Virus record (IMG/VR): IMGVR_UViG_3300046490_000164
Location: 70,170 to 134,169 of that record
Length of the DNA: 64,000 nt
DNA from: a virus
Reading direction: 5' to 3' (one strand)
The notes under the pieces were generated by a model. The model was given only the letters and a program-made list of their open reading frames with translations, had not been told where the DNA came from and searched no databases. The translations under genes and the position numbers were made by a program. Of this stretch, positions 11,954 to 63,774 are shown one piece after another; position 1 is the stretch's first letter; each line of letters begins with the position of its first letter.

Positions 11954-11961
11954 CTTATGCC
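11954..11961 (+). promoter_or_regulatory. Conserved CTTATGCC motif, copy 1 (divergent region 11919-12065, 105 nt upstream of the first plus-strand gene)
   Basis: Exact 8-mer shared with three other intergenic sites. Followed by the hairpin-like CCGCG AAAC CGCGG and a TCTTTCT tract. Confidence 0.35.
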
Positions 11962-12065
11962 GCGAAACCGCGGGCTCTTTCTGGCAACATCGCTGTTGGC
12001 ACTCCAGGGGGTGAGCGCCTAAACTCGTGCGACGACAGGTGTCGTATCCCTTCCAAGGAGAAGCA

Positions 12066-13260
12066 GATGAAGACAGCCGGCGTGGTGTTCGACTTTTACG
12101 ACGACATCGGGGGCTCTGTCCTCAAGGAAGTCTACCCGACTCCCGACTCGCTCCCGGCGTCCGTGAAGGAGGCCCACATCCTCCGGCCGGAGGAGCGCGA
12201 AGTCCTTCGTGACGACGCCTACGCTCTCGTGATGCAGAACGAGGGGAAGGTCCTCCGCAAGTTCGCCTGCGTGGATCGGGGCAACACCCTGCTCTCGATG
12301 GTCTACATCGGGAAGACGGCCGGGCTGCTTCCAGAAGAAGTGCGCAACGCGGCCTACGAGAACATCGTGAACCGGGCCGTCGAGTTCGGAATCCTCAAGC
12401 CGGAGGCCATCGAGGGCTTCAAGAAGATCTCCGCGGCCAAGGGGATGCAGAGGACTCGTGACTCGATGCGTCAGCCCATCGTAGGCGAGGACGCCGACTG
12501 GGCCGCCCGCACCAACCTCGTCTCGCAGCGCGGCGGAGCTGACTCAGGACGGGTCATCCCCACGGCCAACCAGATGAAGACCGCCGCCCCCATCGACGTG
12601 ACGGACCTCGAGCCCGAGATGGTCATCGAGACGAAGCAGGCCTCGGTGACGGCGCTTGGCAAGTACCCCCTCGACAGCTACGCGGACATCCGGGCAGCGG
12701 CGGACTACTTCGACCGGACCTGGACGGAGATGGACCCGGCTGACCGGCACGAGTTCGCCGTCAAGACCGCCTCCCGCGCCGAGGAGATCGGCCTCACCAC
12801 GAGCGATCTGCTGAGCCGGTACGGCTCAACCGAGTACGCTCCCGACGTGGAGGCCCACCTCGCCTCTCGCAAGCTCAACTGCGATCCCGAGTTCCATCCC
12901 CTCTACGACGAGCTCAAGGCGAAGTACGCCAGCATCGCACCGGAGGAGTTCGTCGAGCACCTCGCGGCCGTGGACGAGCTCGCCGGCCTGGACTACAGCT
13001 GGGGCGGGCAGATCTCCGACCCCTGGTACTCCACCTTCGGCGGCGCGTCTGAGCAGGAGAAGGTGGCCTTCGTCTGGAGCGGGAACGGCGTCGAGGTCGA
13101 TGCCGAGGCGCTCACCAACCTGGCCGGCAACAAGGACCTCCTCCTCGGCGCCTTCGACAAGAACCTGGTCGACGGCTTCGTGCGGGACCCGGTGACGATC
13201 TTCTCGTCCCTGCCCGACGACGCCAAGACCATCCTCGCCAACCTCGCCAACGGGGGGTAG
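12066..13260 (+). CDS. Hypothetical protein; first gene of the plus-strand virion block
   Basis: ATG 12066 with an AAGGAG RBS at 12055-12060. 398 aa. The upstream part of the track ORF (from 11929) lacks an RBS. Confidence 0.5.
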
Positions 13261-13380
13261 ATGTCCTCTCTAGCCGAGTACGGTGCTCGTAACAGTAAGC
13301 ACCTGGATCGCTACATCTTCGGCGGTGCAGCTCTTGCTGGGGCTGGGAAGCTTCACAGTCATATGAAGAAGAAGGCGACC

Positions 13381-13851
13381 ATGACGAAGATGGCGGCCTT
13401 CGCGGACGAGCTCGAGAAGATCGCCTGGGACGGGAAGAAGTTCCGCGAGGGTCTGATCGACGAGGGCATTCCCCTGGCCGGGGCCACCATAGGATCTCGC
13501 TACGGCCTGCGAGGTGCTGCGTTGGGGTACGCCGCTGGTGGTGGCGTTTCTCTGGCTCGGTCCTACCTCAAGGGCGAGAAGCCGTCACACCAGCGCAAGC
13601 TGTTGGCGGCGGGAGCGTTGGGGTACGGTGCAGGGGGCCTGGCCCATCACGCACTGGAGAAGGCCACGGCGGGTACGGGGAAGGGTATCCTCAAGCGCAT
13701 CAGGCCCGTGTTCCACCCCCCGTCTGGAGACATCGCCAAGATCAGGACCAAGAACATGGTAGAGGAAGCCCTACCGGCAGCCGGCGCAACCCTGGCCACC
13801 GGCATCGCCAGCGGCACCACGGGACCCAAGAAGAAGCCCAACGAGGCCTGA
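13381..13851 (+). CDS. Small Gly/Ala-rich protein with the N-terminal AFADELEKIA motif (paralog family member 1)
   Basis: ATG 13381 (MTKMAAFADELEKIAWDG) with an AAGAAGG RBS. Alternative upstream start 13261. Gly/Ala-rich segments GAALGYAAGGG and GALGYGAGGLA suggest membrane or glycine-zipper character. Confidence 0.45.
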   Translation: MTKMAAFADELEKIAWDGKKFREGLIDEGIPLAGATIGSRYGLRGAALGYAAGGGVSLARSYLKGEKPSHQRKLLAAGALGYGAGGLAHHALEKATAGTGKGILKRIRPVFHPPSGDIAKIRTKNMVEEALPAAGATLATGIASGTTGPKKKPNEA

Positions 13852-14756
13852 TGAGCACTGCCGAGGACGATCTGTTCGAGAGGCTCCAGAGCCCACCTCC
13901 GTCCCCAGCCGTTCCCGTAGGGGACCCGGACTCCTCGACGCCTGTCACCGTTCGGAATCTCTTCACGCACCACGACGCGCACCCACTCGTCATCGACTTC
14001 GCGCTGCTGAAGACCTTCAACCTGGAGTGGCTCGGGTGGGAGGAGGAGACGATCTGGGCGGAGATCCAGCGCCTCTTCAAGACGCAGATCTCCGAGCACG
14101 CCCGGGCCAAGGTCCGTACGGTCAAGACCTGCCACGTCGCCAACGGCCCGTGGGAGCAGTGGCAGGTGTTCGAGAAGGTCGTGCAGGGGTTGAACAACAA
14201 CGTCCCCCGCTGGGGCATCATGCAGGCCCCGACGCTCGAGCAGCTCTACGCCGCCATCGACATCCTCGCCGGCCTGCGCAAGCAGGACTTCTCGGACGAG
14301 GTGAAGAGGTACATGGCCGCGGCGGTGCTGCATGAGGATGTGGTCTTCGTCCCACCGCCCCTCGACTTCATCCAGGTGGAGGTCAGCCATCCCCACTACG
14401 TCTGCCAGGACTGCGGCAACGAGGACTCGGCCCTCTTCCACGACGGCACCTGCGACACCTGCACCAAGAAGTACGACCTCTCGAATGGCCTCGGCTTCCA
14501 TCCTGACCCGGACGTCCTGGCCAGCGGGCGCGGCAGAAACCTGAAGCTCGTCCTGCGCTACGACCCGGACCCGGTTCAGAAGCTCTGGGACACGGTGAAG
14601 GGCAAGAGGACGGAAGAGGTGGCTGACTCACTCGAGGAGACGCCAGAGGGTGTGCAGGTGGCGAAGCTCCTCATGGCCCGTGACTACCTCGACCTGCGTC
14701 GCAAGCAGCTCGCGGATCAGCTCATCTCCCTGAAGACCTGGCTGGGGGCTGTGTGA
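13851..14756 (+). CDS. Hypothetical protein
   Basis: 301 aa. TGATG overlap with the upstream gene. Contains a CxxC...CxxC pair (CQDCGN...CDTC). Confidence 0.5.
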   Translation: MSTAEDDLFERLQSPPPSPAVPVGDPDSSTPVTVRNLFTHHDAHPLVIDFALLKTFNLEWLGWEEETIWAEIQRLFKTQISEHARAKVRTVKTCHVANGPWEQWQVFEKVVQGLNNNVPRWGIMQAPTLEQLYAAIDILAGLRKQDFSDEVKRYMAAAVLHEDVVFVPPPLDFIQVEVSHPHYVCQDCGNEDSALFHDGTCDTCTKKYDLSNGLGFHPDPDVLASGRGRNLKLVLRYDPDPVQKLWDTVKGKRTEEVADSLEETPEGVQVAKLLMARDYLDLRRKQLADQLISLKTWLGAV

Positions 14757-62534: not shown

Positions 62535-62563
62535 GAAGTCGATCACCTGGCGGTGGCCAGGCA

Positions 62564-62800
62564 CTACACCCTCAGCGCCATCGGGCGCTCGATGGTCTCG
62601 ACGTGCTTGCAGAGGAGGCACCGCACCGTCATGAGGCGGTCGAGGACGAGGATGACCACGCTCTCCGGGTGCTCGCAGTTGGGGCAGTTGCACTCGTGCA
62701 CGTCGCCCACGTTGAGGCCGTAGGTGCGCTTGCGCCGCAGGTTCTTGATGATCTCGGTCTTGAGCTCGTTGGTGAGCTCCAGCACTGCTTGAGAAGCCAT
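62564..62800 (-). CDS. Small zinc-finger protein
   Basis: Start trimmed to ATG 62800-62798 (MASQAVLELTNE...CNCPNCEHP...C..C). Only the last 78 aa of the 215-aa track ORF are treated as real. Confidence 0.35.
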   Translation of the reverse strand: MASQAVLELTNELKTEIIKNLRRKRTYGLNVGDVHECNCPNCEHPESVVILVLDRLMTVRCLLCKHVETIERPMALRV

Positions 62801-62811
62801 GTGACTTCCTT

Positions 62812-63726
62812 TCAAGTTGGGATGAGCCTCGAGACGAGGCTGTGGTTGGGGGTGATGGTGGTGATGTCTCTGATGCGAGTGGAGATGAAGGTGCGGTCTT
62901 CGGCGGAGAACTTCTGTGCGGTGAGGAACAGCGTGTCGTGCCAGCCCACCCGCGGGTGCGCGGTCATGAGCTCCACGAGGTCTCGAGTCGAAAGGGCATA
63001 GCTCGACTCTCCCTGCCGGCTCTCGTTGGCGACGGCCACGAGAGCCGCCAGAGCGTTCTCGTCCACCATGCCCAGCAGCTTGCGGATGATGCTCTTCTCC
63101 GCCTCCGGAGGAGGGTAGGGGATCTCGATCTCGATGAAGCGAGACTTGAGGTCCTGGTTGAGCTCGTAGCTGCCCTCGACGGAGAGGGTGTTGCGCGTGG
63201 CCACCACCCACAACTTGCAGTGGCGCATGACCTCGAGGTGCGTGGAGATCTCGGGGAGTTCCACCTTGCGCCTGAAGTCGGTCAGCGGGTTCAGCGACTT
63301 CTGCATGAGCGGCGAGAGGGTGGGCAGCTCATCGAGGACGAGCATGGCCCTGCCCAGCTCGTTGGCCGCCATGATGGCGTTCGAGGCGGTGCCGAAGATG
63401 AACTCCACGCTCGAGGTGCCCTTGGGGACGAGGCCACCGCGCAGGTGCCTCTCCTTGATCTCGGGCGAGCAGTTGACCTCGAGGTACGGGATGCCGAGGT
63501 CCTCTGCCAAGAACGCGGTGAGCAACGTCTTCCCCACTCCAGATGGCCCAGACAGCAACAGATTGGGCGGGTCCCACACGTCTGTGCCGGGCTTGGTCGA
63601 GAGCTTCTCGATGAGTGGGAGGATGCCGAACGTGTCCACGTAGTCGAGGTCCTTCTCAAGGACCATTCCGCCCGGTACCATGTAGCGGCACTCGATGCCA
63701 CCAATGGTGATACAACCTTCTGGCAT
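62812..63726 (-). CDS. MoxR/CbbQ-like AAA+ ATPase
   Basis: 304 aa. Walker A SGPSGVGKT, Walker B MLVLDELP, sensor/arginine-finger region VVATRN...LKSRF. Confidence 0.75.
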   Translation of the reverse strand: MPEGCITIGGIECRYMVPGGMVLEKDLDYVDTFGILPLIEKLSTKPGTDVWDPPNLLLSGPSGVGKTLLTAFLAEDLGIPYLEVNCSPEIKERHLRGGLVPKGTSSVEFIFGTASNAIMAANELGRAMLVLDELPTLSPLMQKSLNPLTDFRRKVELPEISTHLEVMRHCKLWVVATRNTLSVEGSYELNQDLKSRFIEIEIPYPPPEAEKSIIRKLLGMVDENALAALVAVANESRQGESSYALSTRDLVELMTAHPRVGWHDTLFLTAQKFSAEDRTFISTRIRDITTITPNHSLVSRLIPT

Positions 63727-63766
63727 GCGGCCTCCTAGGCCTTAGGTAACGGGTGTCTTCCATCCT

Positions 63767-63774
63767 TCTTATGC
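63767..63774 (+). promoter_or_regulatory. Conserved CTTATGCC motif, copy 4 (45 nt upstream of the plus-strand gene at 63819, in a divergent region)
   Basis: cttCTTATGCCtc. Confidence 0.35.

Follow-up and report, generated by a model that had tools for sequence, protein, structure and literature searches.

The 64,000-nucleotide stretch of viral DNA analyzed here (positions 70,170 to 134,169 of IMG/VR record IMGVR_UViG_3300046490_000164; hereafter the window) encodes its own RNA polymerase (RNAP), and a single 8-mer, CTTATGCC, recurs in the DNA between its genes. What does this repeated word do, which genes does it serve, and which polymerase might read it? An original prediction made from the letters of the window took the word for a phage-specific promoter and placed it before plus-strand operons. 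The repeated 8-mer is a real, non-random signal, and it serves minus-strand genes, opposite to the orientation first assumed. Read on the minus strand, it is probably the -10-like core of a bipartite sigma-type promoter that fires leftward, for which we infer a phage holoenzyme as the reader. Related loci are cited below by L-numbers.

A repeated word confined to intergenic DNA

The exact 8-mer occurs four times in the window, always on the plus strand and always between genes (S1 to S4, Table 1). The mean number of copies expected is 0.52, and four or more copies arose in none of 100 dinucleotide-preserving shuffles of the window. The original prediction had described these four plus-strand, intergenic sites with the flanks (T/C)CTTATGCC(T/G)C, and both the word and its flanks are as it described them. 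Three of its coordinates were exact; the fourth, given as 63767-63774, was off by one nucleotide, the actual position being 63768-63775. Three further sites, at 6717, 36245, and 60606, had been overlooked. There the variant CTTATCCC stands in place of CTTATGCC, again on the plus strand and again between genes.

The two forms swap at orthologous positions among close relatives (L002 compared with L006). The window total is then seven sites of CTTATSCC on the plus strand, which is GGSATAAG on the minus strand. In what follows, GGCATAAG is CTTATGCC read on the minus strand, and GGGATAAG is the minus-strand core at the CTTATCCC sites. One-mismatch matches to CTTATGCC, taken together, are not enriched in the window. 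The 5-mer CTTAT/ATAAG, with both strands summed, is found nine times against 18 copies expected; all nine lie in the same orientation, and seven of them are the motif sites.

Because intergenic DNA makes up just 5.1% of the window, the occurrence of all seven sites within it has a probability of P ~9e-10. A word count of the kind proposed with the original prediction, made over the intergenic and coding DNA of the window, found no coding copies, copies on one strand only, and strong intergenic enrichment.

Orientation of the motif

As GGSATAAG, each of the seven window sites is followed, 14-87 nt downstream, by a start codon on the minus strand that has a good Shine-Dalgarno sequence. Sites 11954, 18712, and 63768 are divergent junctions, and all four CTTATGCC sites have the start of a minus-strand gene immediately to their left. 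Sites 6717, 33503, 36245, and 60606 are flanked by two minus-strand genes and have no plus-strand gene downstream. The plus-strand genes, which include those for virion proteins, the terminase, and the RNAP, never carry the motif. Three of the four sites first noticed are divergent junctions, which is why they were seen as standing upstream of plus-strand operon starts; the geometry is true, and the genes that the motif serves lie on the other strand. The placement of site 33503 at the start of rnhB was borne out (RNase HII, Pfam 5.8e-27), and rnhB is a minus-strand gene.

Relatives show the same orientation. The site upstream of dnaB is kept in L026, L027, and L028, where the genes on both sides are co-oriented. 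In these three 21-kb loci, ATAAG occurs eight times on the gene strand, seven of these being intergenic, while CTTAT does not occur at all. The window and 22 non-redundant loci together yielded 66 intergenic G..ATAAG sites, with 39 at divergent junctions and 15 co-directional before a co-oriented gene. Eight of the 66 appear to break the orientation rule. Six of these are explained by small genes that the gene caller overlooked, whose start codons and Shine-Dalgarno sequences are visible in the sequence. The remaining exceptions are L004 4972, a chance match inside an unannotated open reading frame (ORF), and L010 23483, which fits no minus-strand gene start.

One candidate concerning the plus strand was tried and rejected. 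The ATG within the motif at S3 could be taken as the leaderless start of the plus-strand ORF 33506-33826; relatives carry CTTATCCC at this place, and the conserved ORF is the one at 33511-33777 on the minus strand. This minus-strand ORF encodes 88 amino acids, was found in five relatives by tblastn, and ends in a TGA stop codon that abuts the S3 motif.

Conservation across the lineage and in cultured phages

The fused RNAP gene of the window is also present at 24 IMG/VR loci, at 39-65% identity and on contigs of up to 198 kb. Between this gene and its divergent neighbor, CTTATnnC was found in 19 of 19 non-redundant relatives (39-65% RNAP identity). The flanks of the motif at this place diverge, with a mean column identity of 64% even within the close clade. 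With the motif numbered from -14 to -7, as set out in the next section, the clades vary at -13/-12, giving GGSATAAG, GTCATAAG, GCCATAAG, and G(G/A)TATAAG.

Two cultured phages contain the motif as well. Salmonella phage Arash has a 181-kb genome, 110 kb of which contain 20 minus-strand copies of GGTATAAG and a single plus-strand one, with the consensus GGTATAAGnAAAGTGTAaAc. A minus-strand gene begins ~20-55 nt beyond each of the minus-strand copies, and several of these copies are in a 46-kb stretch that is almost wholly minus-strand. One copy is found 13 nt upstream of tRNA-Asn. A motif that precedes a tRNA gene is a signal that acts on transcription and not on translation. Across 50 kb of Vibrio phage D181, nine copies of GTTATAAG were found, all of them on the minus strand, which places the word among the most strand-asymmetric 8-mers of that region.

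Two occurrences of GGTATAAG have settings of their own. The sole plus-strand copy in the 110 kb of Arash, at 11588-11595, lies immediately before gp9-gp10, and gp10 is the virion sigma factor; this might be a feed-forward arrangement. At L010 23373-23490 (minus orientation), what comes after a GGTATAAG site is a pair of strong hairpins and an ORF of only 22 codons. This segment may be a small non-coding RNA driven by the same promoter class.

Architecture of the putative promoter

Fifty-nine sites were aligned on the motif. An upstream partner, (C/A)AA(A/G), occupies the positions 19-16 nt before the first G of the motif, and the spacer between the two is low in information. Relative to the motif, A is found at -18 in 45 of the 59 sites and at -17 in 49, and in all seven of the window sites, where the upstream element reads CAAAG, GAAAG, GAAAAG, CAAGA, CAACT, or CAATT. 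The T-rich tract that had been noticed beside the sites is real and conserved, and it is the reverse complement of this A-rich upstream element. On the other side of the motif, a T/purine pair follows after 6-7 nt: among 33 distant-clade sites, +13 is T in 25 and +14 is a purine in 32. Between the motif and the Shine-Dalgarno sequence there are never fewer than 5-6 nt, a sharp floor reached in ~9 cases that are partly orthologous, rnhB with its orthologs among them. Such a floor is what a transcription start ~7 nt downstream of the motif predicts.

If -11 is assigned to the A of ATAAG, the whole arrangement reads cAAAg(-34..-30)-N15-G N S A T A A G(-14..-7), and +1 falls on a purine. Two features expected of sigma-70-family promoters in general are present. 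There is a conserved A at -11, with ATAA invariant at the RNAP-neighbor sites and in Arash and D181, and there is a second element ~17 bp upstream of the -10 hexamer, weaker in Arash. The T expected at -7 is missing, since every site has G. The starts are predicted from sequence, through the T/purine pair 6-7 nt after the motif and the consensus GTGTA in Arash.

The motif also resembles the promoters of sigma-28 (FliA/SigD/WhiG), whose consensus consists of a -35 element TCTAAAG (-36..-30) and a -10 element GCCGATAA (-15..-8) (PMC12784957). Both are bipartite, both have AAAG at -33..-30 and (G/C)ATAA at -12..-8 in the same register, and the upstream G of the phage motif resembles an extended -10. 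The phage motif differs in that GCC at -15..-13 is replaced by nGN, that G at -7 is invariant, and that C is commoner than G at -12. Of the sigma-28 -35 sequence TAAAG, the AAAG is in register and T at -34 is found in 20 of the 59 sites only; of GCCGATAA, only (G/C)ATAA matches. The genes served here are of the phage replication type, which is a further difference.

The original prediction had placed each site within or next to a hairpin. Folding does not bear this out: for none of the seven 60-nt segments is the fold better than in shuffled versions (z -1.27 to +1.75). Small stems exist at 11960-11973 and around 33503, where their positions relative to the motif differ, and site 63768 has no stem. 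The idea of a promoter specific to this phage lineage is nonetheless supported by intergenic enrichment, conservation, clade variants, and fixed architecture; its direction, polymerase type, and hairpin were wrong.

Signals of another kind are found before plus-strand genes. The sequence TTGGCA-N18-TAAACT at 11996..12025 (+) is a sigma-70-like candidate for the rightward promoter of the plus-strand gene at 12067. It stands back-to-back with S1 and is kept as TTGTCA-N18-TACACT in L002 and L006. In L002, L006, and L013 the RNAP gene is preceded by a sigma-70-like TTGAC(G/C)-N17/18-TA(T/C)C(C/T)T.

The RNA polymerase and the question of its sigma factor

The window has a GC content of ~63% and encodes a portal, a large terminase (TerL), a tail-sheath-like protein, a family-A DNA polymerase, helicases, a primase, a UDG, and an RNase HII. 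Its RNAP, encoded on the strand without the motif, is a fused beta-beta' multisubunit-type enzyme of the mReC lineage and is not of the N4 type. The original prediction had likened the setting to that of the N4 virion RNAP; Pfam finds Rpb2 and Rpb1 domains only, and no single-subunit type. The protein shares 28-33% identity with RpoB/RpoC of bacteria as well as with the beta/beta' encoded by Vibrio phage D181, Salmonella phage Arash, and Rhizobium phages. A megablast search of the RNAP region against cultured phages returned no match.

The mReC, or multimeric-RNAP-encoding Caudovirales, were described in a phylogenetic study (Weinheimer & Aylward 2020, PMC7481178), whose account covers neither promoters nor sigma factors nor fused beta-beta' genes. 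The window shares with this lineage a beta and a beta' that can be aligned to cellular RNAP, tailed-phage structural genes, relatives of ~180-200 kb, and a metagenomic distribution; DnaB homologs are likewise numerous on contigs of ~200 kb. To the lineage as described, the window phage adds a beta joined to beta' in one ORF. No report of promoters or of sigma specificity for this polymerase lineage was found in the searchable literature.

By mass spectrometry, Arash virions contain beta, beta', and the sigma factor gp10 (PMC10585845). There is a second sigma in Arash, gp196, and one in D181 too. The best NCBIfam matches of gp10 are FliA/WhiG models, at E = 6.7e-12 and 45 bits against a curated cutoff of 326, so that the match lies below the family cutoffs. 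This likeness of gp10 to FliA/WhiG fits the sigma-28-like register of the motif, and for that reason a phage beta-beta' together with a phage sigma is held to be the most likely reader.

How the promoter may work

In the proposed mechanism, the polymerase would recognize, on the minus strand, (C/A)AA(A/G) at about -33..-30 and, beyond a spacer, G-N-S-A-T-A-A-G at -14..-7. Transcription would start at the purine 6-7 nt past the final G, and next would come a short leader, then a strong Shine-Dalgarno sequence and the minus-strand gene. The genes served would be those for the DnaB helicase, RNase HII, the AAA ATPase, and the vault-protein-like product, along with the heads of replication blocks. 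Plus-strand genes at the divergent junctions would use separate sigma-70-like promoters, back-to-back with the motif. The reader would be the phage beta-beta' RNAP with a phage-encoded FliA/WhiG-related sigma like that packaged in Arash virions, and the motif would mark a gene class transcribed by the phage enzyme independently of host sigma-70.

Phage sigma factors with their own promoter consensus are familiar from T4, where gp55 directs late transcription from TATAAATA, and from SPO1, with gp28 and gp33/34. As in those phages, a phage-specific promoter class here marks one gene set and is distinct from host sigma-70 promoters. The sigmas of T4 and SPO1 redirect the host core, whereas the phage here also encodes a beta-beta' core. 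In addition, the T4 late promoter has no -35 element, and the T4 and SPO1 consensus sequences are unrelated to the phage motif.

Several observations weigh against a sigma-type promoter read by a phage holoenzyme. No sigma gene was found among the ~65 proteins of the window with Pfam or PHROGs, nor in the window by tblastn with Arash gp10 or by a scan for the region-2 motif, and a hidden Markov model of gp10 relatives found no sigma among the ORFs collected for the analysis. These negatives are weak evidence, because the window is just ~1/3 of a ~200-kb genome. The transcription starts in all of these phages are sequence predictions, the -35-like element is short, and -7 is G and not the T that sigma-70-family factors normally require. 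The position counts are inflated because many orthologous sites are not independent. The invariance of G/ATAAG is partly by construction, because the search pattern fixed those bases; the RNAP-neighbor sites, which are defined by position, show the same invariance independently of the search pattern. Lastly, the fifth divergent junction (36969|36999) has a degenerate CTAATCCA and no proper motif, which leaves the minus-strand gene 36265-36969 at a divergent junction with only a degenerate match.

Weighing other readings

If the motif is a genuine leftward promoter, it might still be read by the host polymerase, with either sigma-28 (FliA) or a sigma-70 that accepts an odd extended -10. This is unlikely. 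The register of AAAG and SATAA equals that of sigma-28 promoters, which are conserved across bacteria, the TATAAG of Arash and D181 differs from TATAAT by a single base, and a host reader would agree with the window's lack of a detectable sigma. Yet the sigma-28 GCC at -15..-13 is absent, G at -12 occurs only in GGGATAAG sites while C is found there in 41 of 59, and the invariant G at -7 fits neither host sigma. Moreover, -13/-12 vary with phage clade and not with GC content or likely host. The lineage has its own beta-beta', its complete genomes have their own sigmas, one of them virion-packaged and FliA/WhiG-like, and a tie between replication genes and a motility sigma would be an odd dependency.

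Less probable again, and by a good measure, is that the 8-mer is an operator through which a phage regulator, such as the HTH protein at 36265-36969 or an RHH protein, co-regulates the leftward genes. This alternative had been raised in the original prediction, and the window does encode HTH proteins (HTH_17/MerR-like); S3 also has an inverted repeat that relatives keep with different sequences. The asymmetry of the motif and its fixed register with the -35-like element and the pyrimidine/purine start dinucleotide make it unlikely. Each site has a single copy, the minimum distance to the Shine-Dalgarno sequence is a sharp 5-6 nt, and compact junctions of 50-75 nt leave no room for a separate promoter. 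The motif is also kept across relatives that share little else in these regions, and in Arash it stands 13 nt before a tRNA gene. That tRNA gene also counts against a role in RNA, in which the motif would be a site of 5'-leader processing or of ribosome or protein binding in transcripts that start further upstream. Such a role would agree with the strand-specificity of the motif, with its position 5-75 nt upstream of Shine-Dalgarno sequences, and with several sites internal to operons. At divergent junctions, though, the upstream promoter would fall inside the neighboring gene, the conserved element 15 nt upstream and the dinucleotide past the motif, which looks like a start site, suit recognition of DNA, and the window shows no Rfam match and no significant structure. 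An RNA element is thus very improbable.

Equally hard to credit is the reading of CTTATGCC on the plus strand as a phage-RNAP promoter for rightward operons (the virion block, the RNAP gene, and the gene at 63810), recognized either around the start site, as with the phiKZ late TATG that starts at G, or as an N4-type hairpin. Three sites do lie 35-130 nt upstream of plus-strand gene starts, and distant relatives have the motif 7-50 nt before plus-strand genes with a Shine-Dalgarno sequence directly after it, for example CTTATGACggagaaatcATG. The plus-strand motif also contains TATG, the late consensus of the phiKZ non-virion RNAP (PMC4666361). The variants CTTATCCC, CTTATATC, and CTTATACC lack TATG, however, and four of the seven window sites are not followed by any plus-strand gene. 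In L026-L028 the site before dnaB agrees in direction with genes oriented the other way, and the copies in Arash (20:1) and D181 (9:0) follow the genes' own orientation in almost entirely minus-strand stretches. All hand-inspected sites except L010 23483 have a minus-strand gene start with a Shine-Dalgarno sequence on the other side, the RNAP is not N4-type, and the hairpins are neither significant nor consistently placed.

The two models behind this rightward reading were rejected individually. Against the phiKZ-like TATG promoter, the sites between two minus-strand genes and the dnaB orthologs show the opposite orientation; its TATG points away from the genes served, and the RNAP here is not split. 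Like phiKZ and AR9, the window phage has a multisubunit-type RNAP and short, putative lineage-specific promoters. The RNAPs of those jumbo phages are split into 4-5 polypeptides and work without sigma-family factors, and their motifs overlap the start site (the phiKZ late TATG starts at G, and the AR9 motif is on the template strand). The window enzyme, by comparison, is a single beta-beta' fusion near cellular RpoB/RpoC with a putative promoter of -35/-10 geometry. The N4-like hairpin promoter fails on the type of RNAP, on folds no better than shuffles, and on the varying positions of the stems. Its resemblance to the present case lies in a possibly virion-delivered polymerase with lineage-specific promoters and in small stems nearby. 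The N4 virion RNAP is single-subunit and T7-like and needs a 5-7 bp stem with a 3-nt loop, and neither feature is found here.

Individual sites and neighboring genes

The positions of the seven sites, their upstream elements, and the genes that follow them are collected in Table 1. Orthologs of S1 are present in L002, L006, L013, and L026-L028. Those of S3 are found at L001 17174, L002 23502, and L006 24616, and also in L013, and those of the 36245 site at L001 19939 and L002 26233.

Table 1. Motif sites of the window with their putative upstream elements and downstream genes, and the RNAP gene; cores are written as read on the minus strand
Feature	Position	Strand	Remarks
S1 core GGCATAAG	11954..11961	-	Heads leftward replication block; predicted start near 11947 (T-1/G+1)
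S1 -35-like element GAAAGA	11976..11981	-	Seen in the original prediction as T-rich CTCTTTC on the other strand
S1 downstream gene	11316-11912	-	AGGAGG; TTG start 41 nt after motif
S2 core GGCATAAG	18712..18719	-	Predicted start near 18705-18706
S2 -35-like element TCAAAG	18734..18739	-	
S2 downstream gene	18520-18672	-	AGGAGG-N5-GTG
Conserved genes next after the first gene of S2	17979-18428, 17553-17972, 17344-17553	-	
S3 core GGCATAAG	33503..33510	-	Internal promoter candidate; predicted start near 33496-33497
S3 -35-like element CCAAGA	33525..33530	-	
S3 downstream gene rnhB	32871-33488	-	Shine-Dalgarno GGAGGA begins 5 nt after motif
S4 core GGCATAAG	63768..63775	-	Predicted start near 63761 (T-1/G+1)
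S4 -35-like element TCAAAG	63790..63795	-	
S4 downstream gene, AAA ATPase	62812-63726	-	AGGAGG; ATG 41 nt after motif
6717 core GGGATAAG	6717..6724	-	Between two minus-strand genes; predicted start near 6710
6717 downstream gene, DnaB-like helicase	5239-6663	-	53 nt after motif
36245 core GGGATAAG	36245..36252	-	Between two minus-strand genes; predicted start near 36238
36245 -35-like element GCAATT	36267-36272	-	Within 3' end of HTH gene 36265-36969 (-)
36245 downstream gene	35743-36186	-	
60606 core GGGATAAG	60606..60613	-	Between two minus-strand genes; predicted start near 60599
60606 -35-like element GAAAAG	60628-60633	-	
60606 downstream gene, major-vault-protein-like	57843-60518/60569	-	
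RNAP	18849..25136	+	Single 2095-aa ORF, Rpb2 (beta) then Rpb1 (beta') domains (Pfam)

S3 is flanked by an inverted repeat, AAACCTT/AAGGTTT (33489-33530). Alone among the small stems near the motif, the repeat is kept in relatives, at this site in L001, L002, L006, and L013 and with other sequences, namely CTCCTT/AAGGAG, GAGC/GCTC, and GCGCC/GGTGC.

Upstream of the RNAP gene, the sigma-70-like pair TTGACG-N18-TATCCT is seen among the L002, L006, L013, and L001 orthologs, and the window's own pair at this place is weak (TTTCTC-N18-TAGTCT). The leader of the RNAP gene, at 18745-18848 (+), contains a stem-loop preceded by CGAAGACC and conserved in the L001, L002, L006, and L013 orthologs. The stem is ACCGC...GCGGT in the window, ACCTCG...CGAGGT in L002 and L006, and ACCTCTG...CGGAGGT in L013, so that the changes are compensatory. 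The stem-loop may be an autoregulatory element of the 5' untranslated region.

The vault-like protein downstream of the 60606 site (57843-60569 (-), 908 aa) has a Pfam Major Vault Protein shoulder domain (8e-23) and Vault repeats, which is unusual in a phage. A hemerythrin-domain protein (Pfam 8.4e-13) is encoded downstream of the RNAP gene at 28396-28803 (+). Other products of the window include a cold-shock-domain protein, an HU-like protein, and an HNH endonuclease. Two comparatively long segments, 57347-57842 (~500 nt) and 50081-50367 (~290 nt), have no confident gene call and no Rfam or tRNA hits.

Implications for the mReC phages

The mReC phages carry a deeply branching RNAP of the cellular type, whose role during infection is essentially unstudied. 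What is new here is the proposed sigma-type, phage-specific promoter class for this lineage, since phage-specific sigma-type promoters are already known as a kind. A lineage-wide promoter that is specific to strand and gene class predicts transcript starts, the members of a regulon, and the bases critical for function, and the cultured phages Arash and D181 offer a direct test of these predictions. The motif is also of use for annotation, as it allows operon boundaries and the orientation of genes to be fixed in metagenomic contigs of the mReC group.

It is possible, if somewhat short of probable, that GnnATAAG together with AAAG is the promoter class of a self-contained mReC transcription system made up of the fused beta-beta' core and a FliA/WhiG-like sigma. 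If true, this system, possibly delivered with the virion, would need no host sigma-70 to transcribe replication genes, small ORFs, and tRNA genes. These would then be the first promoters defined for this polymerase lineage, and they would form part of an orthogonal set of core, sigma, and promoter that makes a compact transcription module. If a phage holoenzyme does read the sites, they would also provide a data point on how sigma-promoter specificity evolves beside a non-cellular RNAP.

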